A stretch of DNA of 64,000 nucleotides from an uncultured cyanobacterium (GCA_963710605.1 CAVQBA010000004.1:1088001-1152000); one strand, 5' to 3'. Numbered from the stretch's first letter, positions 41,051 to 61,807 are shown. Numbers and translations are program-made. Notes: a model not told the origin generated them from the letters alone.

Positions 41051-41452
41051 TCACGAGGGCTTTCGTTGGTTTTGAATATACTTTTTAAGGGTTTCTAGTG
41101 AAGCACCCCCACAAGAAGATACGAAGTAACTCGGACTCCACAAAGCGGATCTTCCCCTTGGTTTTCTAAAGCCCTGCTGTCCATATCTACGACTGGAAAC
41201 TCCTTTTAATGAATTTACCATCACAGATATTGATAGCTTCGGTGGGTATTCAATCATTACATGGATATGATCGTTTTCCCCATTAAATTCTAATACTTTA
41301 AAATTCATTGATTCTGCTACCTCATTAAACGATTTTTCAATCGCTTTCAAAGATTCACTCGTCAGTATTTTCTCTCTATATTTTGTTACACATACCAAAT
41401 GAGTATAAAGGCTTGAAACACTATTTCTTTCTCTCCTTAATTTACTGTACAT
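41051..41452 (-). CDS. tnpA: IS200/IS605 Y1 (HUH) transposase
   Basis: HLVCVTKYR, DHIH, LWSPSYF, YIQNQ. Confidence 0.95.
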   Translation of the reverse strand: MYSKLRRERNSVSSLYTHLVCVTKYREKILTSESLKAIEKSFNEVAESMNFKVLEFNGENDHIHVMIEYPPKLSISVMVNSLKGVSSRRYGQQGFRKPRGRSALWSPSYFVSSCGGASLETLKKYIQNQRKPS

Positions 41453-41502
41453 TTTACATACCTATTGAGTATAATTAATACAGACCAATTTAATTTTAAC
41501 AT

Positions 41503-42717
41503 GTGAAACAGCGGTATAAATATAGAATTTATCCTACAGATACACAAAAGCAATTGTTAGCTCAACTATTTGGCTGTTGTAGAGTTGTCTTCAATGACGC
41601 TGTAGCTCTTTGTCAACAGAGATATAAACAAGGTGAGAAGAAGCCAAATAATGGAGAATTAAGCAAAAAGTTGATTACTCAAGCAAAGAAGACAGAGAAA
41701 CGAAAATGGTTAAAAAATGTTTCTTCTGTGCCATTGCAACAAAGCCTAAGAGATTTTGAGCAAGCATTTTCAAACTTCTTTAAATCTGTTACAGGTAAGG
41801 TTCAAGGGAAACTAGTTAAACCGCCCAAGTTTAAAAAACGTCATTGCCGACAGACAGCTAAGTTTACAAATAATGCTTTTAAAGTAGGTCAACATAAAGT
41901 TTATCTGGCAAAAATAGGCACAGTGAAGATTGTCTGGTCTAGACAGTTACCAAGTCAACCATCATCGGTGACAGTTATAAAAGATAGTGCTGATAGATAT
42001 TTCCTTTCTTTTGTTGTCGAAACTTTTCCTGAAAAATTGCCAGATAATGGTAAATCAGTGGGGATCGATTTAGGGATTGAAACCTTTGCAACTATGAGTA
42101 ATGGGGAAAAAGTTAAATCTCCTAAGCCATTAAAGAAAAGACTCAAAAAATTAAGAAGATGTCAACGTAACTTGGCTCGTAAGCCTCAAGGTAGTAATCG
42201 CCGTTACAAGGCTAGAAAGAGACTAGCTAAAGTACATGGTTCTATTAAAGACACTCGAACTGATTTTCTCCACAAATTAAGTACTGACATTATTCGTGAG
42301 AACCAAACAATAGTATTAGAGGACTTAAATGTAAGTGGTATGGTGAAGAATCGCAAGTTAGCTAAAGCGATAAGCGATATGGGGTGGAGACAATTCAGAA
42401 CCATGTTAGAAGCAAAAGCCCAAATGTACGGGCGTGATTTTAGAGTAATCGATCGATGGACTCCAACCTCGCAAGTCTGTTCAACTTGTGGCTTCAATGG
42501 AGGCAAAAAAGAGCTTAATGTCAGACAGTGGAAATGTATCAATTGTGGTGCAGTTCACGATCGAGATGTTAATGCAGCAATAAATATAAAAGTCGCTGGT
42601 GGGCAATCAGAGACTGTAAAAAACGGACGTGGAGGAAAGGTAAGACCTTCTCAAAAAAAGGCACATTCCAATGAAGCGTCAACCACCCAACAATATACTC
42701 AACTGAGTTTATTTTAG
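41503..42717 (+). CDS. tnpB: RNA-guided endonuclease TnpB
   Basis: YKYRIYP; RuvC GIDLG / VLEDL / DRDVNAA; CSTCG..CINCG zinc ribbon. Confidence 0.95.
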   Translation: MKQRYKYRIYPTDTQKQLLAQLFGCCRVVFNDAVALCQQRYKQGEKKPNNGELSKKLITQAKKTEKRKWLKNVSSVPLQQSLRDFEQAFSNFFKSVTGKVQGKLVKPPKFKKRHCRQTAKFTNNAFKVGQHKVYLAKIGTVKIVWSRQLPSQPSSVTVIKDSADRYFLSFVVETFPEKLPDNGKSVGIDLGIETFATMSNGEKVKSPKPLKKRLKKLRRCQRNLARKPQGSNRRYKARKRLAKVHGSIKDTRTDFLHKLSTDIIRENQTIVLEDLNVSGMVKNRKLAKAISDMGWRQFRTMLEAKAQMYGRDFRVIDRWTPTSQVCSTCGFNGGKKELNVRQWKCINCGAVHDRDVNAAINIKVAGGQSETVKNGRGGKVRPSQKKAHSNEASTTQQYTQLSLF

Positions 42718-42807: not shown

Positions 42808-44063
42808 TTGAGTCGTAGCTATTTATTTACCTCAGAATCAGTAACTGAAGGACATCCAGACAAAATCTGTGATCAAATTTCAGATACTATTCTCGACGCT
42901 TTATTAACCGAAGACTCCACTAGTAGAGTGGCGGCGGAAGTAGTTGTAAATACTGGTTTAGTGTTGATTACGGGGGAAATATCATCAAAAGCCAAGATTA
43001 ATTATATTGATTTAGCGAGAAAAAAAATCGCTGATATTGGTTACACTGATAGTGGTAATGGTTTTTCTGCCGCTAGTTGCTCAGTATTAGTTGCATTAGA
43101 TGAACAATCACCAGATATCGCCCAAGGTGTAGATCAAGCCAAAGAACAAAGAGATTTACTTAGCGAAGATGAATTAGACGCTATTGGGGCAGGAGACCAA
43201 GGTATTATGTTTGGTTTTGCCTGTAATGAGACACCTGAACTAATGCCTTTACCGATTAGTTTGGCTCATCGCTTGTCTCGCCGTTTGAGTGCGGTGAGAA
43301 AATCAGGAGAATTACCTTATTTAGGGCCAGATGGTAAAACTCAAGTAACGATCGCTTATGAAGATGATCAACCTGTAGGTATTGATACGATTTTGATTTC
43401 AACACAACATAGCGAAACGATCGGGGATATTACTGATAACGAGCAAATACAAGCTCTACTCAAAGAAAAAATCCAAGAGTTAGTGATTGATAATGTTTTT
43501 CAAGACGAACCAATTAAACCAACACAAAAAACTCGTTTTTTATTAAATCCTACAGGTAAATTTGTTATTGGTGGGCTCAAGGAGATTCTGGTTTAACTGG
43601 ACGCAAAATAATTATCGATACCTATGGCGGTTATTCTCGTCATGGTGGTGGTGCATTCTCGGGCAAAGATCCCACTAAAGTCGATCGTAGTGGCTCTTAT
43701 GCCTGTCGTTATGTAGCTAAAAATATAGTTGCCGCTGGTTTAGCGACTAAATGTGAAGTACAGCTTAGTTATGCTATTGGTGTTGCTCAGCCTGTAAGTA
43801 TTTTGATTGAAACATTTGGTACTGCAACTATTAGTGAAGATAATTTACTTAATTTAGTTAAAAATAATTTTGATTTACGTCCTGCCGGTATTATTCAAAT
43901 GCTTGGATTATCATCTTTACCTGCTCAACGAAATGGACGTTTTTATCAGGATGTTGCCGCTTACGGACATTTTGGTAGAACTGATTTAGACTTGCCTTGG
44001 GAACGTACAGATAAGGTTGATTTACTTAAAAATGAGGCTCAACAAACTTTAGCGACTGTTTAA
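42808..44063 (+). CDS. metK: S-adenosylmethionine synthetase (one-base deletion near 43577, likely error)
   Basis: [19 protein letters not shown](P)[10 protein letters not shown] split across frames, AYGHFGR. Confidence 0.95.
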
Positions 44064-44573: not shown

Positions 44574-46710
44574 TCACCGTTCGATCGTTAAACCCCATCC
44601 ACGTAATACTTCCGCTACGCTCCAAGCCTGAGCAAAACAACCTCTGGGAATAAAAGGAGTATCTCCATCAAAAATTTCGCTAATACTTCCAATACAACCA
44701 TCTGTTAAATGATTCTCGATCGGTAAAAGAAAACTACGAGCTAACTCAGGATTTTTATATACTTGTAAATGAGCTTGAACAAAATGACCGATTAACCAAC
44801 TCCAAGTAGTACCTTGGTGATAACTGACATCCCGTTGTAATCGATTTCCGCCATAAATTCCGATATAGTTAGGATTATCGACATCAAGCGATCGCAATCC
44901 ATAAGAAGTTAATAATTTTTGTCCGACTCGATCGACGATCGTTTTCTGTTGTAATGGTTCTAAAAGCGAATCATATTTATCTAAATTCAAGCAAGGTAAA
45001 GAAACAGCAAAAATTTGATTGGGACGAAAACTAGAGTCATTACCATCAGGAGAATCAATTACATCGTAGCAGTAACCCCCTGCTTGATACCAAAACCGAG
45101 AGAAATTCGATCGTGTTTTATTTGCCATTTGCTGATATTTAGTTGCAGACTTACCTAAAACATCGGCAAAATATTGCATACAAACTAAAGCATTGTACCA
45201 AAGTGCATTAATTTCTACAGGTTTACCAATACGAGGTGTAACTACCAAATCTCCAACTTTGGCATCCATCCAAGTCAATTGTACTCCTTCAACACCTGCA
45301 TAAAGTAAACCATCATCATCAATCTGAATGTTATAACGAGTACCTTTAATGTGATGATTAATAATATCGGCTAATAAAGGAAATAATTCGGTAAGAAATT
45401 CTTTATCTTCAGTGGCAACGTAGTAGCTTCGGATTGCTTCAAAATACCAAAGAGTCGCATCTACAGTATTATATTCTGGTACTTCACCTACATCGGGAAA
45501 TACATTGGGTAACATTCCCTTATCTAGATATTTGAGCAAAAGTAGAAAGTATTGTTTTAGCAAGATCGTAACGTCCACAAGATATAGTTAATCCTGGTAA
45601 ACTAATCATCGTATCTCTACCCCAATCGGTAAACCAAGGATAACCTGCAACGATCGTTTTACCTTCAGGGTTACCGGTTAAGGGACGATCGACAATAAAT
45701 TGGTCGGCGGCTAAAACCAAATGTTCGAGCCAGTTAGGTAGATTTGAAAGTTGATTGGTAGTACGAAAAAGATTAATTAATTCTTGCTCTTTTGCTCTTT
45801 TTTTCTCTTGGCTTTTTTCCCCTATCGTTTTTCTTCCCCAACATTTACGAAATTCACTCCCACTCCACCGATCTAAAGTACTAGCAATGATGGTTAAAGA
45901 ATCTCCAGGCTGTAAAATACAATTTCCCGTTGCCGCCAGTAAATTATCTTCAACAGCATTCAAACCCCGATATTCTTCTACTGCTAAAGCAAAATTTCGA
46001 TACCAAGTATTATTGATTTCCCAATTAAAATTATTACCAAACCATTTTGGCGTAATTGCCGAGAGATATAAATCTTTAGCGTCAAGAAAAGCCTTAATTC
46101 TTAAACTATAAATGCCTCCCCCATCTAATTTCTCTTGAGAGGAGAGGGAATCTATTGTTTCTGGTGGGCGAAGAGGAATTGCCGTAGAATCAATAGTATA
46201 TTTTTCCTGTATATTGTTTAGATCGTTACTACCGTGGTGATTGCGATAATTAACTAATGCTTTAAGGGATAAAGTTAAAGGCTGACTACCTCGCTTAAAG
46301 TAATAACGAATATAAGTTGTGTTTTCTCCCTGTTGCATCCAAATACGTTTTTCTAACAGCCCATCAGCAAAGGCAAAATTCCAAACTGGAGTCGTTCCTT
46401 CTAAATGAAAACTTTCTATATTTAGGTATCCTTGAGGTGCGATCGTACCATCAGCCCAATGGTTGGTATAGAGATCGTAATTTTGACCGTCGTAATTAAC
46501 AATCTCATCAAGTTTGGTTAAGAGTAAAGTTCTGGCTACAGGAGGCTCTAATGCACCAATCAGTAAGCCGTGATAGCATCTTGTTAATACACCTGCGATC
46601 GTCCCCGAAGCATAACCACCAATACCATTGGTAACTAACCATTCACGCGATCGAGCTACATCAAAGTTACTACATACTTCTCGTCCAAACTTGAGATTTG
46701 TTGTTTGCAT
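44574..46710 (-). CDS. Amylo-alpha-1,6-glucosidase / glycogen debranching enzyme (frameshift near 45534)
   Basis: EWLVTNGIGGY, AGYPWFTDWGRD, TWMDAK, YHQG, QAWS. Confidence 0.88.
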
Positions 46711-49428: not shown

Positions 49429-49513
49429 CAAGTTAATAGAGGGACTAACAAAACAGCTACTTTGTCAATTTTTAAGATTTACTATGAATGCTTACCTCAA
49501 CTATTATTTATTA

Positions 49514-49616
49514 GTAATTCATTAACTTTTCAACGATCGACCACACTTTAATTAAATGACTTTGTTGCAAACCATTAATCCTCTATAAATATTTAAACTC
49601 TACAACAATCAATCGC
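49514..49616 (-). repeat. Decayed copy A of the glycosyltransferase 3' end
   Basis: acgatcgaccacactttaattaaatgac...aaatatttaaactctac aligns to about 58035-58139. Confidence 0.8.
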
Positions 49617-49741
49617 TCCAATTATATTGACAAAATGTTAGTTATAAAGAGAAGAAGACGGGGTAAATATAATCCAACAAGTGAGATAAAATTAAGCATA
49701 ATGTAAATAAGTATATATCGAACAAATGTCGATCTAGATTC

Positions 49742-50848
49742 ATGAGAGTTGTTCTTACTCAATTTTGCGGTCAAAGAATTTTAAGGTACTGTATTTTGAT
49801 TCGTATAGAAGCTAGTAATGTTTGTACTCAAATTTGGACATTATCTACTTTCGATCCTTACAGAGAAATCTATATTTGGCTGGGAAAAATTCGGGATTCT
49901 CAGCTACCTGCAAGAATGATAATTGATGAGGAAGGTAGAGGAGTAGAACTTTTTGCCGAGAGAATAAACAGTGAATTAGTCAACTTTTATATAAAGCCAT
50001 GGGCTTCTAATAATAACGATCGGACACATCTGAATACTACGCTTAAAAGCGATGAATTAGTAAGTGCTTTTTGCAACGGAATTCTTGAGTTTCTAGGAAA
50101 TAATTACTGTTTACCAGAGTGGTCTAATATTGATAATCTTAGCAACTTGAACTGGAGAGCATTACTTCAGCCTAGAAATCATGCCGATCGCAAATGGGAA
50201 ACACGACTGGCTATTTATCAAGGAAAATATCGTAAAATTCCGAATTCTGAGCGTAAATGTCTGGAGAAATCTTTAACGATAGATCGGCAATGGCTAATTG
50301 TTCTATACTATGCTCTTGAGAAAGTTGCTTTGCTTGGATGTTCTGGGCAGACATACGAATCCTATGGATTTATGAGCCTTTATCAAAATCTTCTTGTGGA
50401 TCTTATTTTAAACGAAATAGATTCAGATTGGTACGAAGAACGAGAGACGGAAATTGAACAAGGGTTTACAGATCTTGTTAAAATATTTAATCGTAGTCGA
50501 AATCCTGAACGCATACGTCTTGAAATTCAGGCTAGGTTATCAACTTTAAAGTTAGGTCAACTTGTTGATGGTAGAGTTTGTCAAATAAAGCCATACGGTG
50601 TATTTGTTGATATCGGAGGACTCCGTGCATTGTTAAGTACCTCTACAATTTCTCAATTGCCGATCGAATCGCCAGATCTGGTTTTTCAAAATGGTGACTG
50701 GGTTAGAGCAATAATTGTATGGATGGATATTGAAAAAAGAAGAGTATTACTTTCAACAAGTGATTTAGAGCCAGAACAAGGTGATATGTTGTGCAATCCC
50801 TTACACGTTTATCAAAGAGCAGAAGAAATGGCAAATAGATATAATTAA
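49742..50848 (+). CDS. Unknown N-terminal domain fused to an S1 RNA-binding domain
   Basis: C-terminal GRVCQIKPYGVFVDIGG...LSTSDLEPEQGDM...AEEMA resembles the last S1 repeat of cyanobacterial ribosomal protein S1. Confidence 0.75.
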   Translation: MRVVLTQFCGQRILRYCILIRIEASNVCTQIWTLSTFDPYREIYIWLGKIRDSQLPARMIIDEEGRGVELFAERINSELVNFYIKPWASNNNDRTHLNTTLKSDELVSAFCNGILEFLGNNYCLPEWSNIDNLSNLNWRALLQPRNHADRKWETRLAIYQGKYRKIPNSERKCLEKSLTIDRQWLIVLYYALEKVALLGCSGQTYESYGFMSLYQNLLVDLILNEIDSDWYEERETEIEQGFTDLVKIFNRSRNPERIRLEIQARLSTLKLGQLVDGRVCQIKPYGVFVDIGGLRALLSTSTISQLPIESPDLVFQNGDWVRAIIVWMDIEKRRVLLSTSDLEPEQGDMLCNPLHVYQRAEEMANRYN

Positions 50849-50958
50849 AATGTACTATCAAGGTTATCAAACAAATAAAGTACGATCGAGTTAAAAACAT
50901 TTGTTGGAAAGTAGTTACAATAAATAAAGTATGTTTTGATAATTTGAGTGAGGTAAGC

Positions 50959-51177
50959 ATGAGTGAGTTACTAGAACGTGCAATTGCTAAGTTGCAAAAC
51001 TTGCCTGAAAGTGAGCAGAACGCCATCGCTTCGATCGTTCTGGAGGAAATTGAAGATGAACGGCGTTGGGATGAGTCATTTTCCAGTTCCCCTGATATTC
51101 TTGCTAAACTCGCCGCTTCGGCAATGGTTGAATATCACGCTGGTGAAACCCAAGAACTTGACTCAGAAAAACTGTGA
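50959..51177 (+). CDS. Putative antitoxin
   Basis: GAGG RBS; acidic; GTGA overlap with the toxin. Confidence 0.7.
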   Translation: MSELLERAIAKLQNLPESEQNAIASIVLEEIEDERRWDESFSSSPDILAKLAASAMVEYHAGETQELDSEKL

Positions 51178-51443
51178 ACTCACGTACTACTGCCCAATTT
51201 CGTAAATTGTTTGCTGATTTACCCAAACAAGCTCAACAGCAAGCCCGTACCGCTTATAGTCAGTTCCAGAAAGATCCTAGCTATCCAAGCCTGCGTTTTA
51301 AAAAAGTTCATCCAGAACTTCCAATCTTTTCTGCTCGCATTAGTAAAAATTACCGAGCGGTTGGTCAGTTAGAGGTAGATACAATGATTTGGTTTTGGAT
51401 TGGTTCGCACGCTGAATACGACAGTTTGTTAAAGCAAATGTAG
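51174..51443 (+). CDS. ParE/RelE-like toxin
   Basis: YPSLRFKKV, SARISKNYRA, WFWIGSHAEY. Confidence 0.8.
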   Translation: MNSRTTAQFRKLFADLPKQAQQQARTAYSQFQKDPSYPSLRFKKVHPELPIFSARISKNYRAVGQLEVDTMIWFWIGSHAEYDSLLKQM

Positions 51444-51459
51444 AAATCCAGCATCATAA

Positions 51460-51697
51460 TTAATTATTCATTAACTTCTGACCGATCGACCATACTTTAA
51501 CCAAATGACCTTGTAACAAAGCCTAATACCCGCAAATATTTAAACCCTACGATATCTGAATCGAGTTTTAAGGTAGTTTGTAAAGCTTTTTCACCTTTTT
51601 CGCTCAAACCAATCATAAAGATCAAGAAAGCTCAAATAAGCGTGATTATAGGCATTGTTTGGATATAAACTAACTAGTTTTTTAGCAGTAGCGATCG
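51460..51697 (-). repeat. Copy B of the glycosyltransferase 3' end (~240 bp) ending at CGATCG
   Basis: Aligns to about 58034-58272 with small indels; ends at CGATCG 51692-51697, matching CGATCG 58267-58272. Confidence 0.92.
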
Positions 51698-51754
51698 ATC
51701 GATTTTTTGTTGTCTAGTCAAGTAAATTTATCAATACATATTTTTAGGATAGTT

Positions 51755-52897
51755 TTAAGCGTCTTGGTCAGTAGGTTTTGGTAGATCGAAGTAAAAAGTA
51801 CTACCTCGACCCAAATCCGACTCAACACCAAGTTTTCCATCATGTTGTTCGACAATTCGCTGACATAATGCTAACCCGATACCGCTACCTTCGGCTCGTT
51901 GTTCGCCCCCTCGGACAAATAGTTGAAAAATTTTCTCTTGCTCTTCAGGCAAAATACCAGGGCCATTATCTGTAAGCCGAACTAGATAGCGATCGTTTTT
52001 TAATTCACAATAAACCATAACAACAGGCGTTGACGTTTGATTATGAACGATGGCGTTTTTAATCAAATTACTCACCAGATTTTCTAATAGTTTAGCATTA
52101 CCTTTTACTATAGGAAGGTTACTCCAATCGATCGAGGCTTGATGGGTATCGATCGTATTTTGCAATCCATTTACCGCTTGCTCGACGACAAGATTCAGAT
52201 CGACAGGTTCAAATTTAAGATTGCGTCGGGATTTAAGTTTGCCATATTCTAATAAGGCGTTTAGCGTTTGGTTCATTTTACGAGAAGTCTGCAAGCCCAT
52301 TTGCACGATTTTTTGGTTACGGCTTTCTAGTTCGCTTTCTTGGAGTAAATCTAAACTAACTGTGACCACGTTAAGCGGGTTACGTAGTTCGTGAGCCACC
52401 GTATGGCTAAAATTTTCTAGCTCTCGATTGCTTTCGTGAAGCCTTTCGAGTGTATCTCGCAGTTGAAACTGACGCTGACGATTGCTCAAACAAACTTGTA
52501 CGATGGAAGTAAATTCATGACGCTGGAGCGGTGTTTCTAACAGGGTGACGCCGCGTTGATGTCGGGCAGATTGTAACATCGTCATACAGGTAGAAAAATG
52601 GCGACAATTTTTGAGTAAAAAAATTAGAGGAATATCAGACCAATCAGGCTGTTTGTTCAAGCACTCCGCTAGTCGATCGAAATTATTGTCGATCGCAAGC
52701 ACTTCTTCGGTAATAATTACCAAGCTGACTTCTGCACGAATAGCAGTTATTACCGTCTCGATCGAATCCGTAGCCATACAGTCTATTTCTTCAATTTCAA
52801 GCAGTTGTCTTACCGCCTTAGCATTGTGAGCCAACTTAGTTGAAATCACAACAGTATCCGCAGAAAGTTGGGAAGAATCGTTAAATTTAGAGATCAT
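51755..52897 (-). CDS. Sensor histidine kinase with a degenerate receiver-like N-terminus
   Basis: AHELRNPL H-box, NLIKNA, DNGPG, GIGL; QPDWSDIPLI. Confidence 0.88.
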   Translation of the reverse strand: MISKFNDSSQLSADTVVISTKLAHNAKAVRQLLEIEEIDCMATDSIETVITAIRAEVSLVIITEEVLAIDNNFDRLAECLNKQPDWSDIPLIFLLKNCRHFSTCMTMLQSARHQRGVTLLETPLQRHEFTSIVQVCLSNRQRQFQLRDTLERLHESNRELENFSHTVAHELRNPLNVVTVSLDLLQESELESRNQKIVQMGLQTSRKMNQTLNALLEYGKLKSRRNLKFEPVDLNLVVEQAVNGLQNTIDTHQASIDWSNLPIVKGNAKLLENLVSNLIKNAIVHNQTSTPVVMVYCELKNDRYLVRLTDNGPGILPEEQEKIFQLFVRGGEQRAEGSGIGLALCQRIVEQHDGKLGVESDLGRGSTFYFDLPKPTDQDA

Positions 52898-54404
52898 TTT
52901 CTATCAATTTTGTCGGTTCGCCAATATATTTAGGAATACCAGAAAGTATGCCCGAAAATTGTTCGAGGGGATCGCCAATATGGATGCCATTCGCATCGAA
53001 CCTAATTTCGCGAATCCCCTTTTCGTGAGCACCGTAGCGTTTTTTGTACACCCCGATCGCTTTATGTATAGCTCCTTTAGCTTCAAAATGCCGTAGTAAC
53101 AATACAGAATCAGCTAAGTAACTAATATCAACACTCCCCTCTAATCGATCGCCAATCACCCCGTGTTGTGCCACCACTAACAGAGTCAAGACATTTTGCC
53201 GATTGAGCATAATTAACAGATCGTGCATTAGGGTGACGAGCTTTTCGTTGCTTGGCATAGAATTAGCGTAGCCCGTCAAGCTATCAATTAAAACAATCTT
53301 AGCTCCCCATTCTTTTACATCCTCATTGATTTGAGCCCTAAATTTACCTGGGTTGCTGTTACTTAAGCCTAATTCACGAATCCGAATTTGGTCTGGATAA
53401 TCCTGCGGATTTAAGCCAATATCAAGTCCTTCAGATCGTTTGAGGAAAGTACTTGCAAGTTCATCAAACAGAAAAACACTAGCTTTTCCACCTTGACTGA
53501 TGAAGTTATGAATAAACAAACTAGCAAGAGTCGTTTTCCCCGTACCAGAAGGCCCAATTAATAAAGATGAAGTTCCCGTAAGTAGATAGCCGCCAATAAG
53601 TTTATCAAAAGAATCGATACCGCTTGACATGGGCTGATAAGATTCTTTATCATCATTAGGAGTCTGAGAAATTAGATGAGGAGCTTGATGCTGAATATGA
53701 TAAATGTTCATACCTTGGCTGGTAATTTCCATATCGTGAATTCCTGACTGAAAATTACTGCCTCGGAGTTTGGATACTTGCAGATACCGGTAATCTTGAC
53801 TGTAAGTAGTCGTCACTCTCGACAGGTTAATTACACCGTGGGCGATGGAAACTAGTTCGCAATCGCCAGGAGCCAGCTTTTGGTCGTCTGTCAACATGAT
53901 GGTGATGTTACGATTGTGCATATAGTCCCGCAGTAATAGTAAATTACGTCGATAAACTAACTTATCATTAGCTAACATCCGTAAATAGGCAATACTGTCA
54001 AATATTACACGTCGGGGCTTTACCGCTTCGATGACTTCTATAAATTGAGTCATTGTTGTTTCTAACTCAAGATCGGAGGTATCGAAAATGGTCTGCTGTT
54101 GTTCTGTTGCTTCTAGTGCTTGTAACTTACCAAATTCTTCAAAAACGATACCATCAGGATCGATACCCACCGAAGTGGCTGTCTGTTTTATGCTTTGTAC
54201 CCTTTGAGATAAGGCAATGCACAATACTTTTTCATCTGCCTCTACTCCCGATCGTAAAAAATGTAATCCCAGAATTGTTTTTCCTGTTCCCGGCTCACCA
54301 TTGACAACATAAATTTCTCCTTCAGGAAGACCGCCACAAATTATGTCATCAAGGGAGGCAATCCCTGTAGAAATTCTTACTAAAGAGCTAGAGGCATCTT
54401 TCAT
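52887..54404 (-). CDS. KaiC-like / RAD55-family double-domain ATPase
   Basis: Two Walker A motifs GEPGTGKT and GPSGTGKT; KLRGS; DISYLAD. Confidence 0.85.
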   Translation of the reverse strand: MKDASSSLVRISTGIASLDDIICGGLPEGEIYVVNGEPGTGKTILGLHFLRSGVEADEKVLCIALSQRVQSIKQTATSVGIDPDGIVFEEFGKLQALEATEQQQTIFDTSDLELETTMTQFIEVIEAVKPRRVIFDSIAYLRMLANDKLVYRRNLLLLRDYMHNRNITIMLTDDQKLAPGDCELVSIAHGVINLSRVTTTYSQDYRYLQVSKLRGSNFQSGIHDMEITSQGMNIYHIQHQAPHLISQTPNDDKESYQPMSSGIDSFDKLIGGYLLTGTSSLLIGPSGTGKTTLASLFIHNFISQGGKASVFLFDELASTFLKRSEGLDIGLNPQDYPDQIRIRELGLSNSNPGKFRAQINEDVKEWGAKIVLIDSLTGYANSMPSNEKLVTLMHDLLIMLNRQNVLTLLVVAQHGVIGDRLEGSVDISYLADSVLLLRHFEAKGAIHKAIGVYKKRYGAHEKGIREIRFDANGIHIGDPLEQFSGILSGIPKYIGEPTKLIENDL

Positions 54405-54644
54405 TAAATAATTGGTTTTTGTTTAATTGAATACTATCTCTACATATATTAACAGAAGTCAAACTAGACTCAGACAAATGTTTGCCGTATTTTTTTTAGA
54501 TACCTTTGTTTGCGGGTATATCGTCGGCAACTAATATTTATCAAAAGTTTGAGCTTTATTAAAAAAATTTGGGCTATTTTCTAAACGATAATGGCTAATA
54601 TCGTTCCGAGGAATATAATATAAGTAAAAACAAGTGACGAGGTA

Positions 54645-55091
54645 ATGGCGAAACTCTACTACCGTGGTATGGCACAGCAAGATGGTAAATCAAAAATAGG
54701 TAGAAGTGCCAGACTATTAGGAATTAGACTTAACATCGATATAAACGTTGAGCAAATACCAATAGGTTATCTTGACAAGCAAGGATATTTGTTACCAGAG
54801 TCATAGCGTCAGATTTCAGAAAAACTAGTAACCGTTGCTATTAAAGAGAATAAGGGAATGTCTGTGTCTTTATCGATCGACAGTTTACCTGCATTTCGTA
54901 AACCTGCCAAATTTGGCGGAAAGGGAAAAGATACTCTTTGGCAAATTGATGACAGCTATATCATAAAAGATTTACAGGCTGTTCAAGATAGCCCGACACA
55001 CGTTAGCATTATGCCAAGAGTTACAATGACTTTAGAAAGGTACGAGACAGCATTGGCAAATACCCAAAATTATTGGCAAAAAGTTGACTAG
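54645..55091 (+). pseudogene. Putative Tse2/ADP-ribosyltransferase-like toxin with an internal TAG
   Basis: MAKLYYRGM...GMSVS...THVSIMP; TAG at 54804-54806; GAGG RBS. Confidence 0.5.
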
Positions 55092-55112
55092 TAAAATATA
55101 CGAAAATAGGAG

Positions 55113-55649
55113 GTGGCAAAAATGGCATGGATATTTAGTTTATCAGCAGAATGTGGTTGCGATCGAATCAACGCAGATAAATTTGCTCAACATTTTGAGG
55201 GAATGTCATTGTTGCTATCAAACGATCGTCAGTACAAATGTCTTACGGACATATTCCAAGACATAGAAGAAAATTGGTGGTGTCGAGTTTTACCAAGTAA
55301 TCTTAGTGAAGTGGGAATAGAAGCCAATGAAAGTGCTTATTTAATGACAGAGTTAGGTATTTCACTTTATCAGTCTCTACGATTTGCGACAACCTTTCGT
55401 TATGCACTAGTTGGTGTTGAAGTGGATGAATTTAGAACTTACAGCGAACTGATTGAAGATTCTGCTAATTTATCTATACCAGGATTAGTTTTGAATAAGA
55501 CACTTGCAATAGATTTAGAAATATTATCAGCTTTTCGAGCCTTTAGTTCTAATTATGTTTGGCAACCTTACGCAGGAGAAATCTACAATCCACTCATGAC
55601 ATACCCAAATTTAAAAAATAAGTTGAATGAATTGTTAGCTGTAATTTAA
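55113..55649 (+). CDS. Hypothetical protein, probable immunity/antitoxin partner
   Basis: AGGAGG RBS; lies immediately downstream of the toxin-like ORF. Confidence 0.6.
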   Translation: MAKMAWIFSLSAECGCDRINADKFAQHFEGMSLLLSNDRQYKCLTDIFQDIEENWWCRVLPSNLSEVGIEANESAYLMTELGISLYQSLRFATTFRYALVGVEVDEFRTYSELIEDSANLSIPGLVLNKTLAIDLEILSAFRAFSSNYVWQPYAGEIYNPLMTYPNLKNKLNELLAVI

Positions 55650-55656
55650 TTTAAGT

Positions 55657-55958
55657 TATAGTTGTTTAAATTAAGTTTTCTTGGTCGGCGTTCGGTGTCT
55701 TGGTGAGCGTTCGGTGTCTTGGTGAGCGTTCGGGTCTTGTCGAGCGTTACGGTGTCTTGTTCGCGTGGTGTCTGGTGAGCATTCGCTTGCGTCTTACGCT
55801 CCTGAGCGGGTTCTCACCGCTTGCGACTTGCCGTATCGAAAGCGGGTCTGACCGTTTGAGACAGTATAAAAATAGTAGAAAAAAACATAAAACCCGCCTT
55901 GCAATCAATTGTCAAGGCTAACAGATACCGTTTAATAAATTAAACTAAAAGAAAATAT
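55657..55958 (+). mobile_element. MITE (34618 family) carrying a nested GC-rich insertion
   Basis: Matches the reverse complement of 61830-61991 once 55679-55853 is removed. Confidence 0.75.
55679..55853. repeat. GC-rich tandem repeat (~19-bp unit gtgtcttggtgagcgttcg)
   Basis: About 5-6 degenerating units; GTTT on both flanks. Confidence 0.75.
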
Positions 55959-55964
55959 AATTGT

Positions 55965-56030
55965 ATTCGGATTATCAGCGCACCAGAGGCAACTAAAAAT
56001 GAGCGGAGGTTTTACGAAGATGGAAAATAA
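55965..56030 (+). pseudogene. C-terminal remnant of a BrnT toxin
   Basis: IRIISAPEATKNERRFYEDGK* overlapping the next gene. Confidence 0.7.
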
Positions 56031-56241
56031 TCATGAGCTAGAAGATGATTTAAGACCTGAATATGACTTTAGCAAGATGCAAGGTGGTATTAGGGGAAAA
56101 TATGTCGATCGCTATCAGGCAGGAACAAACATCGTATTACTCGAAGCTGATGTTGCTCAAGTGTTTGCGACAAGTGACGAGGTTAATAAGGCACTTCGAT
56201 TACTTATGCAAATAGCCCAAAGGCAGAAGCCTAATACCTAA
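56020..56241 (+). CDS. BrnA-like antitoxin
   Basis: DLRPEYDFS..GIRGKY, LEADVAQVF..VNKALR. Confidence 0.7.
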   Translation: MENNHELEDDLRPEYDFSKMQGGIRGKYVDRYQAGTNIVLLEADVAQVFATSDEVNKALRLLMQIAQRQKPNT

Positions 56242-56374
56242 TTATTCATCAACTTTTGACCGATCGACCATACTTTAACTAAATGCCCCTGTAACAAAGC
56301 ACTTATACCTTCTAAATATTTGAACTTTACGACATTTGGATATAAACTAACTCATTTTTTAGTAGTAACGATCG
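56238..56374 (-). repeat. Copy C of the glycosyltransferase 3' end with a 102-nt internal deletion, ending at CGATCG
   Basis: Aligns to about 58036-58137 plus 58240-58272. Confidence 0.92.
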
Positions 56375-56475
56375 ATACCGTAGATGTTGCACGGATATAT
56401 TCAAAAACATAGAAGAAAATTGAATGACTACGCAAGTTAGAATACAAGGGTAATCTTTGAAACGAGGTTAAGCTA

Positions 56476-56751
56476 ATGGTAATTCGAGAGCCACGCTATA
56501 GCAAAGAGGAATTCGCCCAGCGAGGTGATTATCTCTATGAAAATCAGGTAAAACATCAAGTTGAGGCGGGAAATGATGGCAAAATTGTAGCGATCGATAT
56601 CGAAACAGGAGCTTTTGAGGTAGCTGAGACACCGATGGTAGCAGTCGATCGATTGTACGAACGTGAACCCGATGCTCAACCTTGGGTAATTCGGATTGGA
56701 CATCGAGCAGTCTTTCGTTTTGGTAGTCGTAGTCTGAGGAAGCCTGTATGA
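56476..56751 (+). CDS. Small protein typically paired with clan AA proteases (DUF5678-like)
   Basis: GKIVAIDIETG...PDAQPWVIRIG; ATGA overlap with the protease. Confidence 0.65.
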   Translation: MVIREPRYSKEEFAQRGDYLYENQVKHQVEAGNDGKIVAIDIETGAFEVAETPMVAVDRLYEREPDAQPWVIRIGHRAVFRFGSRSLRKPV

Positions 56752-57122
56752 TGTTCGGTGTGGTCAATAATAATTGTGAAGCGGTCGTCAAAGTTGCTGT
56801 AGGGCGTATCGGTTCACCTAAAAGAATCGTTGATGCAGTTATTGATACAGGATTTACTGGCTTTTTGTCTTTACCACTTTCTATGATTAGGGAGCTTGAC
56901 TTGCCTTGGCATTATAGAGATATTGGTACATTAGGCGACGGGAGTGAAGTCGTATTTGAAATCTATAAAGGGGCTGTAATTTGGGATGGTCAGAATAAGA
57001 TTATTGATGTGGCGGCTTCGGATGCAGAGCCACTAGTGGGAATGAGTTTGTTTTATGGGTTTAAGCTTGAAATCGAGGCTGTTGAAGGTGGTATTGTCAC
57101 GATCGAAGCTTTGAATAAGTAG
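56748..57122 (+). CDS. Clan AA (retropepsin-like) aspartic protease
   Basis: AVIDTGFTG catalytic motif; PLVGMSL. Confidence 0.85.
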   Translation: MMFGVVNNNCEAVVKVAVGRIGSPKRIVDAVIDTGFTGFLSLPLSMIRELDLPWHYRDIGTLGDGSEVVFEIYKGAVIWDGQNKIIDVAASDAEPLVGMSLFYGFKLEIEAVEGGIVTIEALNK

Positions 57123-57476
57123 CAAAAGACGATTGGTGAGGCTTAATCTAACCATCATTTAGCGATTGACTACTAATTAAAAATTTTGTTGATGTTGGGT
57201 TTCATGCTTCAACCGTTCCCTACTACTGCACCAGAACTTTTCTCTATCTTGTAAAAACAGTACTATAGATCTCTTTTTCTTTTTCCATCATGAATAATGA
57301 TTTTGAAACTTAACCAAATCAACAACCATTCATTCGTTTTTGTTAAATCTTACGCCTAACTTTATATCAGAAAAAGGAGCAAACATTATCTTGCAATTGT
57401 GGTATCATATGCTCATTGATAGACTATTGTACTGCAATTGTGGTCTAATTATAAGTTGGATGCTCAATAATTAATC

Positions 57477-57800
57477 ATGTTTATTAATCCAATGTGGGAC
57501 ACTGAGAGCCAAAGAATTGGTAAAATGAAATGTTCTCCACTCGCATATAATCTACATATTATTTCGGATTTAATCGGTTTGGTTTCTATGCTTGTATTAT
57601 TTGGAGGCTTTGTATCATTTCTTCATACAAATTGGAAATATTCAATAATATTAATTCTTTACTCTTTTATTTCTGCTTTTCTTGGAAATTTACTTTACAG
57701 ATATTCTTGGAAAATTATAGAGAGGAAAGGTTTTGAATATGATTATGAAAATTGTATTTGTTATTGGTATGAGAATGGAGAAATAAAATCTTACAAATAA
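57477..57800 (+). CDS. Small two-TM hypothetical protein
   Basis: Two hydrophobic segments; RKGFEYDY tail. Confidence 0.6.
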   Translation: MFINPMWDTESQRIGKMKCSPLAYNLHIISDLIGLVSMLVLFGGFVSFLHTNWKYSIILILYSFISAFLGNLLYRYSWKIIERKGFEYDYENCICYWYENGEIKSYK

Positions 57801-57817
57801 ATCTGAAGAAGAATGAT

Positions 57818-57901
57818 AATGACCTTGTAACAAAGCACTAATCCCCTCCAAATATTTAAACTCTACGACATCTGGATCGAGTTTTAAGGCAGGTTGCAAA
57901 G
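57818..57901 (-). repeat. Copy D of the glycosyltransferase 3' region
   Basis: Encodes LQPALKLDPDVVEFKYLEGISALLQGH, identical to the gene, with 4 synonymous changes. Confidence 0.93.
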
Positions 57902-58030
57902 TCCGAACGTCAATCTTGTAGGGTGCGTTTTCTACTGTAACTTATACTACTCTACTGATAAATTTCTGGAAACGCACCACACTTACAAACCTCTAAAAGT
58001 AAGCCGTTACAGTTTAAGCTTAATATTTAA

Positions 58031-60565
58031 TTATGAATTATTGATTAATTTTTGACCGATCGACCATACTTTAACTAAATGCCCCTGTAACAAAGCACTA
58101 ATACCCTCTAAATATTTAAACTCTACGACATCTGGATCGAGTTTTAAGGCAGGTTGCAAAGCTTTTTCGCCTTTTTCGCCATTCCAATCATAAAGATAAA
58201 GAAAGCTCAAGTAACCGTGGTTATAGGCATTGTTTGGATATAAGCTAACTAATTTTTTAGCTGTGACGATCGCAGGTTCTACTTTTTGTTGTAAAACTTG
58301 AGACAATAATAATGTATAAAGATAATCAGAATTATTTTCGGTTTGCAGTCGATGTAGTAAGGTTTTTTCGGTTACTTTTAAATAGGCTTGATCGGGATCG
58401 TATTGATTAATTCTACCAACTGTTGCAAAAACAGGCTCTAACCCTTCTATTCCTTCACCTAAAGCAGGGGCAAGACGATTAATTTCACTGACTAAATCTA
58501 ATTCTCTTTGAGCAACGGGAGAAGTTATATTTTGCTCGACTATAATTTGTGTTGGCGGTATGGTTAAAGGTTTTGTTTTTCCTGTTGTTTTATTTAATAA
58601 TTGTGCTTCTAAAATATAGTTACCGTCGGGTATATTTTCAGGAATAAACATCGCTGTATTTTCGATTACTTGAAAATCTTTATTTAATTCATTTTTAGCT
58701 AAGTTATCAAAATATAAATTACTCATTCCTAAACTGTGGTCATGAGTCCATTTTATCGTTTTATTTTCTGATGAATACCATGTCAATAAAACGATCGTTT
58801 CTTCTAATTCTTGAGCTGTTCCAGTCCATTTATAAGTAATATCAACTGTCTTATTTTGACTTACTTGTGAAGGAAAAATAACCTCATTTAATTCTAAATT
58901 GCTATTAGTTGAATTAAGAGGATTAACAATAGTTTGTAACTGCTGTCTTTGATATAGTTGCAAATAACTTTCGTCGGGTAAAAGCCATTTATCTAGTAAA
59001 CTAAAATCACCACCATTTTCGACTAAATCAACTGTCATTTTCTGTGCGTCGGGAATCGAACCTTGTTCGCCTGTTTTCGTCAGAAACCAATCTAAAGCAT
59101 TGACATCTTGAGGTACTTCTTTTTCTCTTACTCCGACTTGTCTGCCATATACTTGTTGCGAATCGGGAATCGAGCCATAAAAAGAAACGTTTGATTGATT
59201 GATTTTACTAGTAGAGGGCAAAACCCCGATATTCATTCTCAGATAAGGATTAGTTTGTTTTGCTTTTTCGACTAATTCAGGTACAGCCCATTGTTTTCCT
59301 GTATAAGGATAATTTTCCATTTTTGGGCTGAGTTTATTAGTAATAAAACTTCCTCCTAAAGGGAAAAGATTGAGTAACATTAAAATCAAAGCGATCGATA
59401 CTGTTACTATTTTGAACCACTTCTTTTTTTCTCCTCGATAACTATAAATTAAAGCACTAACTATTAAGGTACAAATAGGTAGTAAGGGCAAAATATAACG
59501 AGCATCTTTATTAATATTTAAAGACGATAATAAGTATCCACCTAAGATAAAAGTTATTAACCAGAAAGTAATAGTTTTAATTTTGTTTTCTGGTAGAGTA
59601 TTTTGATAAAAGTTTTTTTGCAAATATAACCAAATATTTTTAGTTTTGACTGAAGAGTTTTTAAAATATTTAATTGCTAAATAGATAAGACAAAAAAGAC
59701 TAACTAATAATAAAAATGAGGATAATAAGTAAGGAGAAACCTCAGCATAAAATGTCCATGCTTTAAGAGTATTTAAACTAGGATCGCCTTCAATGATAGC
59801 AGAATCGATCGTCGCTCTTTTTCCTGAAGTAAAAATGACTAACCAATTAGTACGATACCAAGGATAAAAAAGGATAATTGCTGACAATGACATTAAAATT
59901 ATTTGCCCGACTCTATGCCATTTTCGTTGCCAAATTGAAAAGATACAAACAAAAAGAAAAGGAAAAAAGAGAAAAAAAGCAAATGTTTGTTTGAGTAACA
60001 ATCCTAAACCGAAAGAAATACCTGTTAATAGACTTAGCCACCACGAAGATTTACCTTGACTGAAATACCAATAACTCAGACAAGTAAAACTAAAAGTAAT
60101 CATGACAGTGAGAGGATAATCTAATAAAAATTCTCGCCGAAAATAATATAACCCTGGTATTAAAGGAATTAAGACACAAGCGAGTAAAGCTATTCGTTGG
60201 TTAAAAAATAATTTACCTAGATAAAAAATACTGAAAATTAGTAATAAACTAAAACCCGAAAAAACTAAATTACCGCTACTCAAACTAGGGGGTAAGATAT
60301 GAAAACACAAACCCGTAATGATATAAATCAACGGTGGAATTTTATTTGAAAGTAACCAAAACTCACGCCACGATGATAAATCAAAAATATCGAGATTGAC
60401 TAACCCTTCTTTGTAACCCATCACCCCATTAAGGTAGTCAGCGGGATCCCATGATGGTACGCTATTATCTAAACTAAACCAAACTCGATCGATTATTAAA
60501 CCAATTAGCCAAATCGATATTAGGATTAAAATAGGGTTCGTTTTTTTGATTATATTTGCTGACAT
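58031..60565 (-). CDS. GT39/ArnT-like lipid-carrier glycosyltransferase with C-terminal TPR-like repeats
   Basis: PSWDPADY, KIPPL, LLDYP, LLKQT, KDARYILP; multiple TM helices; TPR-like tail. Confidence 0.85.
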   Translation of the reverse strand: MSANIIKKTNPILILISIWLIGLIIDRVWFSLDNSVPSWDPADYLNGVMGYKEGLVNLDIFDLSSWREFWLLSNKIPPLIYIITGLCFHILPPSLSSGNLVFSGFSLLLIFSIFYLGKLFFNQRIALLACVLIPLIPGLYYFRREFLLDYPLTVMITFSFTCLSYWYFSQGKSSWWLSLLTGISFGLGLLLKQTFAFFLFFPFLFVCIFSIWQRKWHRVGQIILMSLSAIILFYPWYRTNWLVIFTSGKRATIDSAIIEGDPSLNTLKAWTFYAEVSPYLLSSFLLLVSLFCLIYLAIKYFKNSSVKTKNIWLYLQKNFYQNTLPENKIKTITFWLITFILGGYLLSSLNINKDARYILPLLPICTLIVSALIYSYRGEKKKWFKIVTVSIALILMLLNLFPLGGSFITNKLSPKMENYPYTGKQWAVPELVEKAKQTNPYLRMNIGVLPSTSKINQSNVSFYGSIPDSQQVYGRQVGVREKEVPQDVNALDWFLTKTGEQGSIPDAQKMTVDLVENGGDFSLLDKWLLPDESYLQLYQRQQLQTIVNPLNSTNSNLELNEVIFPSQVSQNKTVDITYKWTGTAQELEETIVLLTWYSSENKTIKWTHDHSLGMSNLYFDNLAKNELNKDFQVIENTAMFIPENIPDGNYILEAQLLNKTTGKTKPLTIPPTQIIVEQNITSPVAQRELDLVSEINRLAPALGEGIEGLEPVFATVGRINQYDPDQAYLKVTEKTLLHRLQTENNSDYLYTLLLSQVLQQKVEPAIVTAKKLVSLYPNNAYNHGYLSFLYLYDWNGEKGEKALQPALKLDPDVVEFKYLEGISALLQGHLVKVWSIGQKLINNS

Positions 60566-60593
60566 ATAGAGAGTAGAAAAATATTCATTAATT

Positions 60594-61807
60594 ATGACAA
60601 AAAAAATTGCCATTATTGGGGCAGGAATAGCAGGTTTAACTATCGGTAAGAATTTACAGGCAGAAGGTTTTGAGGTTAATATTTTTGATAAAGGACGGGG
60701 TGTTGGTGGTAGAATGTCCAGCAGAAGAACAAATTGGGGTTATCTTGACCACGGTTGTCAATATTTTACCGCCAAAGATTCTTTATTTGCTAGTTTTATT
60801 CAGGAAAATGACGAACTTGTTCAAGTTTGGCAAGGAAAGTTTGCACGTTGGCAAGATGGTAATTATACACCTTTAGAGATTGCGACAATGAATCTCTCAA
60901 TCCCCTTCAATTCCCCCGTAAATCCCCTTAACCCAATCCCCCCCAGTAACTCAATCCTCCCTCAATCCTCCTTTAGTAAATCAATCCCCCCTCAATCCTC
61001 CTTTAGTAAACCAATCCCCCCAATCCCCCACAACGTAGCAATGCTACGTCTCTACAAAGGGGGGAGGAAAATTTAGATAAATTAAACAAAACAGGTGTAA
61101 CAAGATTAAATAAAAATGTTATTACTCATTCTCGTTACGTGCCGACGAAGGCGATGAATAATCTGTGTAAATCGATCGCTACAACACTTGATGTTAAATT
61201 ACAAACTAGAATTGTCAATCTGACTAAAAATCAGAAGAAATGGACTTTAACTGATGAAAATGCTAATCAATATAGTGGTTATGATTGGTTAATTGTCACT
61301 GCACCACCTGCCCAAACGCAAGATTTGTTAACAAGTCATACTGTCATTGCTGAAGAGATAGCCCAGATAAAAATGCTTCCTAATTTTACTTTGATGTTAA
61401 CTTTAGCTGAGGAGATGAATCTTCCTTTTGATGGCATCGAATTACAACACCCGATTTTAGGTTGGATTGCCGTCAATAATAGCAAACCTTCACGAGGAGA
61501 AAAAACAAGTATTGTGATTCAATCTAACTTTACTTGGGCGACTGATAATCTGGAAAACAATCGAGATACTATTACGCAACAATTACAAAATAGTGCTAGT
61601 GAAATTATGGATATAGATTTGGATAAATGTCTGTATAAATCATTACATTTATGGCGTTATGCAATACCTGCACAGAAGAATGAGGCTGGTTGTTATATCG
61701 ATCGTGAAAATGCGATCGGTGTTTGTGGAGATTGGTGTATCGGCGGTAAAGTAGAAGCGGCTTTTAATAGTGCTAATTTATTAACAGATTCGATCGTCGA
61801 TCGTTAA
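60594..61807 (+). pseudogene. Renalase-like NAD/FAD-dependent oxidoreductase interrupted by a repeat-derived insertion and frameshift
   Basis: IIGAGIAG, GGRMSSRR, DHGCQYF in the 5' part; HLWRYA, GDWCIGGKVEAA in the 3' part; C-rich repeats at about 60890-61070. Confidence 0.8.

Follow-up and report, generated by a model that had tools for sequence, protein, structure and literature searches.

For thirty years, the function of HIP1 and of its core CGATCG has been under debate, to which natural HIP-site joints with two visible parents contribute rare evidence. In the stretch of 64,000 nucleotides from an uncultured cyanobacterium that was analyzed here (the window, from whose first letter positions are counted), a single CGATCG at 56369-56374 lies between the remains of a glycosyltransferase gene and those of a gene for a protein of 178 amino acids. 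The original prediction had called this a direct footprint of recombination at the HIP1 core. This raises the questions whether the joint is a real recombination scar and whether a mechanism specific for HIP sites is needed to explain it.

For HIP1, several kinds of recombination have been described. In Synechococcus PCC 6301, a HIP1-flanked excision of 352 bp in smtB was explained by illegitimate recombination between HIP1 repeats (Gupta 1993, as reported in PMC13756078), and by its title a further study found similar rates of HIP1-promoted excision for E. coli and Synechococcus (Robinson 1997, cited in PMC4390886). As far as these reports go, the excision precedent points to ordinary short-repeat recombination and not to a cyanobacterial machine. 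A site-specific recombination at HIP1 in PCC 7002 is cited as well (Akiyama 1998, cited in PMC4390886), and, as pointed out by Elhai (2015), the evidence for site-specific recombination fits CGATCG as well as the octamer. Furthermore, HIP1 in the homology arms is described to raise transformation, an effect termed “reminiscent of Chi” (Kamoku & Nielsen, preprint), and recent work ties HIP1 and its core to transformation and recombination, with methylated HIP1 possibly exerting a Chi-like effect in transformation.

In the genome studied here, the iterated word is the hexamer core CGATCG. It occurs 8449 times in 3.93 Mb (33% G+C), which is 25 times the expectation and makes it the fourth commonest hexamer and thereby a frequent source of microhomology. 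The octamer GCGATCGC has only 708 occurrences in the genome. The features that meet at the joint, together with their relatives in the window, are the following.

58031-60613, minus strand: PMT/PMT_2-type glycosyltransferase (GT) gene, 860 aa, with CGATCG at 58267-58272
56240-56374, minus strand: copy C of the GT 3' end, a pseudogene fragment, 92.2% / 87.5% identical to the gene
56369-56374, strand not applicable: joint CGATCG; the crossover can be placed only within about 56366-56376
56375-56384, plus strand: unassigned 10 nt ATACCGTAGA, which belong to neither parent and are in register with three variable codons of the 178-aa family
56385-56422, plus strand: relic of a gene of the 178-aa family, 38 nt with codons for C.TDIF..IEEN, the only clearly homologous part of the right arm
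55113-55649, plus strand: resident 178-aa gene, intact, encoding a putative immunity/antitoxin partner of a Tse2-like toxin

Left of the joint, the predicted origin from copy C was confirmed by pairwise alignment. Here, 35 of the 40 positions of 56335-56374 are identical to 58233-58272 of the GT gene, and 56240-56341 share 92% (92.2%) with 58036-58137. The right arm aligns without gaps to the 178-aa gene, as had been predicted, with 43/56 identical positions between 56367-56422 and 55221-55276 and 36/52 past CGATCG, and the peptides NDRYRRCCTDIFKNIEEN and NDRQYKCLTDIFQDIEEN had been read correctly. This right-arm similarity is significant. In a search of the whole 3.93-Mb genome with a 66-nt query, 26 matches were obtained at E ≤ 10, and besides the query itself solely the resident 178-aa gene was below E 0.01 (E 5.2e-6, 91% over 32 nt). 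The local alignment score of the right arm is 49, and none of 2000 shuffles reached it (maximum 30). With an HMM built from 38 family members, only one of the 149,240 six-frame pieces of the genome scored better than the 25-codon piece 56346-56420, whose E-value of 0.76 is insignificant alone. The homology stops sharply at 56422, and an extension of the relic over the following 53 nt (56423-56475) is insignificant, its score being reached by 217 of 2000 shuffles.

In the joint region, the chimera reads TAACGATCGAT, GT copy D (51459-51723, see below) TAGCGATCGAT, the GT gene TGACGATCGCA and the resident 178-aa gene AAACGATCGTC. A single CGATCG is retained between the GT-tail homology and the 178-aa-gene homology. 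On the GT side, CGATCG is found at the homologous place in the GT gene (58267-58272) as well as in copy D, and in the resident 178-aa gene it lies at 55223-55228 within the N-D-R codons, in the same register as at the joint. The claim that both parts are in register holds for the spacing relative to CGATCG, but not for the reading, since the coding strands are opposite (copy C minus, relic plus). For the same reason, a fusion of two genes, as originally proposed, is not what is present. The stop-to-stop frame over the joint comprises 25 codons, no ORF of at least 40 aa crosses it, and at positions where the 178-aa family has Q without exception and D almost without exception, the relic carries K and N, a sign of decay. 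Both parts are thus dead fragments.

Together with the 10 nt beside CGATCG, the relic comprises 48 nt. Of these 10 nt, 3 match the resident 178-aa gene, and about the same level of matching is seen by eye, not as a computed count, to GT copy D and to the mainstream allele L045. The codons beneath them are among the more variable ones of the family, with an entropy of 1.3–2.4 bits in columns 35–39 and 41 vs. a median of 0.64. In copy C, a second short-repeat deletion has removed about 100 nt between the two blocks, at T(T/C)TGGAT, which shows the segment to be decaying through events of this kind. Read from the sequence, the joint is a real recombination scar that kept one CGATCG between two dead gene fragments. 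A promoter-like TCGATA-18-TATATT at 56372-56401 spans the joint and is directed towards the 91-aa gene described below, which lies 75 nt downstream, but such sites are not above the level in shuffles in this region (5 vs. 8.5).

The resident 178-aa gene starts 21 nt downstream of a further gene.

54645-55091, plus strand: Tse2-like ADP-ribosyltransferase toxin gene, interrupted by one in-frame TAG (54804-54806)

This is the sole locus of the genome with a match to PF18648, the family of the Tse2 ADP-ribosyltransferase toxin. The part at 54858-55091 scores 44.4 bits vs. a Pfam cut-off of 26.6, and 53.4 bits are reached if the gene is read through its one TAG. The intact toxin homologue L044 scores 54.5 bits and covers profile positions 6–127 of 137. 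In the window, the reading frame of the toxin is broken by the TAG while the 178-aa partner gene is intact. The 178-aa family is present in 11 of the 61 genomes searched, including that of the window, and 233 tblastn-confirmed loci were found in genome contigs; all 80 loci listed are cyanobacterial. The family motif LSN..Q.C.TD.FQDIEENWWC covers the relic. Among these 80 loci, 70 had a placeable gene start and 67 of them an upstream ORF, which in 48 of the 67 was a toxin-sized ORF (at least 149 aa) directly upstream of the family gene. Going by this gene order, it is most likely that the 178-aa protein serves the Tse2-like toxin as its immunity or antitoxin partner.

The protein itself matched no Pfam, NCBIfam or PADLOC family, a PADLOC search of the small cargo proteins of the locus gave no match either, and the plasmid collection held no match to the 178-aa protein. 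Against the sequences of solved structures, nothing was found below E 0.3. A confident AF2 model of the protein (pLDDT 84.5) gave no Foldseek hit in the PDB at E ≤ 1e-3. In a wide VIA-align search, the best Z of 5.2, obtained for a T6SS protein from P. aeruginosa (7drg_B, rmsd 4.2 over 147 aligned residues), is at background level and tied with many small alpha/beta folds.

If a second member of this family once lay at the joint, its donor allele should be sought among the relatives. The BLAST search that had been proposed for it covered 80 family loci from named genomes and 8 loci from relatives, and no allele with the Y-R-R codons was among them. The family motif could be placed in 49 of the 80 loci, and 0 of these 49 foreign alleles carry CGATCG at that codon; the usual reading in other genomes is AAT GGT CGC (N-G-R). 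The statement that both parents carry CGATCG is therefore correct for the GT gene, copy D and the resident 178-aa gene, but it is not borne out by the alleles of other genomes. Accordingly, the two parents may have shared less than ACGATCG (TCG), and it is conceivable that only the GT side contributed the CGATCG seen in the chimera.

That the same cassette family was acquired twice, as the original prediction had it, is moderately supported. Between the relic and the resident gene, 7 of the 10 positions beside CGATCG are mismatched vs. 6 of the 38 thereafter (Fisher p 0.0018). The relic is thus no recent copy of the resident gene. A copy truncated at birth could not have diverged by selection at these 10 positions, and the remainder of a second duplicated unit is gone, so that a second, once-complete cassette is moderately favored by the sequence comparison over a duplication of the resident gene. 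In its conserved part, the relic matches foreign alleles from other genera (33/36 and 35/39) at least as well as the resident gene (29/32), a difference that is too small to decide. The divergence of the relic after the first 10 nt (6/38) does not differ from that of copy C from the GT gene (13/142, p 0.24). Exact-match scans of metagenome contigs for the state before the event gave 0 matches to a 26-mer of the right arm and 0 matches to a 24-mer of the GT tail. A genome of the same genus holds only a 34%-identical GT homologue, which lies at a contig end.

The left arm belongs to a larger structure. The GT gene, whose domains are above the cut-off for PF02366 (54.5 bits) and PF13231 (46.7 bits; PMT/ArnT-like), is accompanied at lower positions of the window by displaced copies of its own 3' end, so that five direct copies, including copy C, extend over about 9 kb (49508-58300).

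58031-58300, minus strand: copy A, the 3' end of the gene itself, used as reference
57818-57901, minus strand: copy B, 95.2% identical to the gene
51459-51723, minus strand: copy D, 86.6% identical to the gene, with frame breaks, CGATCG kept at the homologous place
49508-49607, minus strand: copy E, 80.0% identical to the gene, with an internal stop
Left of copy E: cargo with an Imm53-family gene
Between copies E and D: cargo with an S1-domain ORF and a ParE-like toxin with its partner gene
Between copies D and C: cargo with a histidine kinase, a KaiC-like ATPase, the Tse2-like pair and an 80-aa gene
Between copies C and B: cargo with the relic, a 91-aa/124-aa pair and a 107-aa membrane protein
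56476-57122, plus strand: the 91-aa gene and the 124-aa clan-AA aspartic-protease-like gene, right of the relic

The identity of the copies to the GT gene drops with distance, and the copy-to-copy identities are lower still. By sequence comparison, this gradient fits GT-tail fragments that would have been split off one evolving gene at successive times. By hand translation, a stop codon near the position of that of the gene is kept in copies C, D, and E. Copies A and C have only about 19 nt in common past the stop, and beyond this distance the flanks of the five copies show no mutual homology. The inner ends of the copies all differ (58130, 58161, 58272, and about 58300 in the coordinates of the reference), and there is no single core. 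On the far side of the relic, homology to the same 91-aa/124-aa pair in another genome begins at about 56462.

Neither a tRNA nor an Rfam family was detected in the array, none of the 8 matches of the genome to the tyrosine recombinase family PF00589 lies within the window, and the scanned ORFs of the locus include no recombinase. Five relatives of the same family that possess the GT gene (58–60% amino acid identity) have no GT-tail copies in their 16-kb loci. The stack is hence lineage-specific and was not built by an obvious integrase. We infer that it records repeated insertions beside the GT stop codon, which were followed by deletional decay. Such a stack of displaced tails is a readable record of the growth and decay of a toxin/immunity island in which no integrase takes part, and is more instructive than the joint itself. 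A more far-reaching proposal would be that cargo was repeatedly captured beside the GT stop, free of any integrase, by transformation-type recombination that was anchored in the GT gene and had its far joint preferentially at methylated CGATCG. If this were true, a role of the HIP core in recombination would have left a natural fossil in the joint at 56369-56374; we regard this proposal as decidedly doubtful.

Two further observations concern the same region. Between copy B and the GT stop lies a spacer of 129 nt. At 57922-57978, it contains a perfect inverted repeat of 9 bp (GGTGCGTTT ... AAACGCACC, with about 40 nt between the arms), of which no second copy was found in the genome. The S1-domain ORF at 49742-50848 encodes 368 aa, of which the last ~105 residues resemble a part of ribosomal protein S1 (NF005639 positions 187–292, 95.8 bits, far below the cut-off) while no family is assigned to the N-terminal 260 residues; this ORF, too, may be chimeric.

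How much weight the position of the joint at CGATCG can bear was assessed by controls. Exact matches of the GT tail (300 nt) to the 1.8 kb next to it contain CGATCG in 8 of 165 cases for lengths of at least 6 nt and in 4 of 54 cases for at least 7 nt, and those to the 178-aa gene alone in 4 of 48. Any mechanism that uses short repeats would hence land on CGATCG about 5–8% of the time. Genome-wide, the ends of low-copy repeats are not enriched at CGATCG in a crude test (36/2044 vs. a mean of 34.7 in shifted controls), and all HSP ends taken together lie at CGATCG less often than in the controls. For local low-copy repeats, 16 of 544 ends are at CGATCG vs. a control mean of 8.9 (range 3–13), these ends coming in non-independent pairs. 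A census of indel events between repeat copies, which is crude and redundant, revealed CGATCG microhomology in 0 of 83. By eye, only the joint at 56369-56374 lies at CGATCG among the approximately nine boundaries of the five GT copies.

A second chimeric joint with the same topology is present in the genome at C4:1332592, where the tails of a Glt-symporter-like gene and a LysR gene directly adjoin. Here, a 61-nt copy of the symporter tail and a 484-nt copy of the LysR tail (C4:1332532-1333075, i.e., L131:5532-6075) meet with 1 nt of microhomology. The two units contain two FG-GAP genes, and one of them contains a DUF4915 gene. The locus looks like a tandem duplication. Overall, one of the three joints with both parents known in the genome uses CGATCG. 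This is compatible with a mild preference and no demonstration of one.

Taken together, the joint is probably explained by illegitimate recombination via a short homology, the shared ACGATCG, within a decaying accessory island, and no dedicated HIP machinery would be needed. In this scenario, two direct copies of the 7-mer ACGATCG would have recombined and left one CGATCG. The first copy would have been located in a GT 3' end that was displaced and without function, and the second in the N-D-R codons of a second immunity-type gene of the 178-aa family. The event was most likely a deletion rather than one that gave the joint of a duplication or of an insertion. Lost in it would have been a second Tse2-like toxin gene together with the first ~38 codons of the partner gene, as well as that part of GT copy C that lay upstream, and a later further deletion would have cut the relic at 56422. 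This topology, a CGATCG in the donor allele and the order of events are what we infer from the remaining pieces, and a single joint cannot establish a mechanism. From the original prediction, a genuine joint that keeps one CGATCG stands. Its HIP-specific part is not supported, given the microhomology share of 5–8%, the repeat ends, the indel census and the second joint with its 1 nt. What the joint at 56369-56374 does document is that such joints exist where the iterated word is the hexamer core, and following the controls no HIP-specific mechanism is needed for it.

A preferred or enzymatically targeted crossover at CGATCG, be it by a specific nuclease that cuts and rejoins, by Chi-like stimulation or by a site-specific system, is unlikely in our judgment. 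It would account for a joint that lies exactly at CGATCG and in register in both available parents. The one of three joints vs. the expected 5–8%, the local repeat ends above their control range and the literature on PCC 7002 and on the Chi-like effect in transformation, as far as it is reported above, also speak for it. However, neither the genome-wide repeat ends nor all HSP ends exceed their controls, the indel events use CGATCG in no case, eight or so of the boundaries of the GT copies lie elsewhere and the joint at C4:1332592 has a single nucleotide of microhomology. A Chi-like role would not put the joint at the site itself, and for a site-specific system, no PF00589 match lies in the window and no recombinase is among the scanned ORFs. 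Equally improbable is a tandem duplication in situ that would need no second acquisition, i.e., an unequal exchange between the CGATCG of the resident 178-aa gene and that of the GT gene, which duplicated 55229-56374, after which the rest of the second unit was replaced. One event would then give copy C, the truncated gene copy, their orientation and their register. Both parents are present with their CGATCG, the divergence of the relic's 38 conserved nt does not differ significantly from that of copy C (p 0.24), and the LysR/symporter 3' ends provide a clear joint of this topology elsewhere in the genome. The 7 mismatches among the 10 nt beside CGATCG argue against it, since a copy truncated at birth could not diverge there by selection, and so do the missing remainder of the second unit right of 56422 and the unequal spacings of the repeats (1146 vs. 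1898 nt).

It is also conceivable that the register is a coincidence or that filler sequence is involved. The true crossover would then lie 10 nt further right, at TGT(T/C)G, or the donor had AATGGTCG, and CGATCG would stem from the GT side only. By eye, neither parent is matched by the 10 nt that follow CGATCG, and a TGTTG also occurs in GT copy D at precisely this distance (10 nt) past its own CGATCG, and the foreign alleles with their 0/49 would agree with this. On the other hand, the resident allele has CGATCG in exactly the same register, for which the density of the word gives a chance of about 1 in 465 per position, a figure that is raised by any mutation pressure creating CGATCG. This explanation is very unlikely. 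An assembly artefact, in which reads were mis-joined in a repeat-rich region, has a next to negligible probability. Several housekeeping genes in the window look split, which hints at indel errors, but such errors do not make a diverged relic of 48 nt flanked by diverged repeat copies, and copies that differ by 5–20% are not collapsed repeats. The genes concerned are metK (42808-44063), a glycogen-debranching-enzyme gene (44574-46710) and an FAD-oxidoreductase gene (60594-61807), each consisting of two ORFs, which are either frameshifts of the organism or indel errors of the assembly. The genome is 84.9% complete and comprises 7 contigs.

The preferred reading, a short-homology deletion, can be set against known systems. 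Like in the smtB excision, one iterated palindrome is kept at the joint, the palindrome is present at the parental breakpoint on the GT side and, for the 178-aa side, in the resident paralogue, and the reading is illegitimate recombination between short repeats. In contrast to smtB, the repeat is the hexamer core CGATCG (8449 vs. 708 of the octamer), the event is ancient and natural and not selected in the laboratory, and one parent is known only through a paralogue. During transformation of Acinetobacter and pneumococcus, homology-facilitated illegitimate recombination anchors one end by homology, and the other end is joined by 3–8 nt of microhomology. With the GT gene as the anchor, such a process would explain the duplicated GT 3' ends as well as the short-repeat joint between cargo and GT tail. 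It too needs a later deletion right of the relic, and transformation is a candidate only.

Islands that are built by integrases at the 3' ends of tRNA or protein genes carry att duplications. The stack resembles them in that direct repeats of a gene 3' end bracket accessory cargo, with the older copies further out. It differs from them by the lack of an integrase in the window and of a tRNA, and by inner copy boundaries that are not the same. Furthermore, orphan immunity genes and displaced modules adjoin polymorphic toxin loci of the Rhs/CDI type. Here as well, a toxin-immunity pair, with the toxin inactivated and the partner intact, has a piece of a second immunity-type gene next to it, and the island holds further immunity or antitoxin genes (Imm53, ParE-like). 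Unlike in Rhs/CDI loci, the repeated block is an unrelated glycosyltransferase tail and not the tail of the toxin gene, and the toxin is a small, stand-alone Tse2-like protein of ~148 aa.

Other repeats and elements were seen alongside. At C2:201575-204667 (L132:1576-4668), a second copy (90%) of the final 253 nt of an OmpR-type response-regulator gene lies 2.6 kb downstream, with a MazF/PemK toxin gene and two other ORFs in between; as seen for the GT copies, the homology of this tail copy goes exactly up to the stop codon. Within the window, a G+C-rich degenerate tandem repeat with units like GGTGAGCGTTCGGTGTCTT extends over 55680-55800, and it is followed at 55854-55961 by a dispersed repeat of ~100 nt, which has at least 9 other copies in the genome at 85–90% identity and shorter matches in relatives. 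An IS200/IS605-type element at 41051-42717 carries divergent genes for a Y1 transposase and TnpB (OrfB_IS605, Cas12f-like TNB). Outside the window, the indel census revealed insertions of 2.3–2.65 kb inside AGTAAGG/GAGTAAG heptamer arrays at several loci (C4:1074366-1077000 and the C7:489738 region), which may represent a mobile element that targets heptamer repeats.
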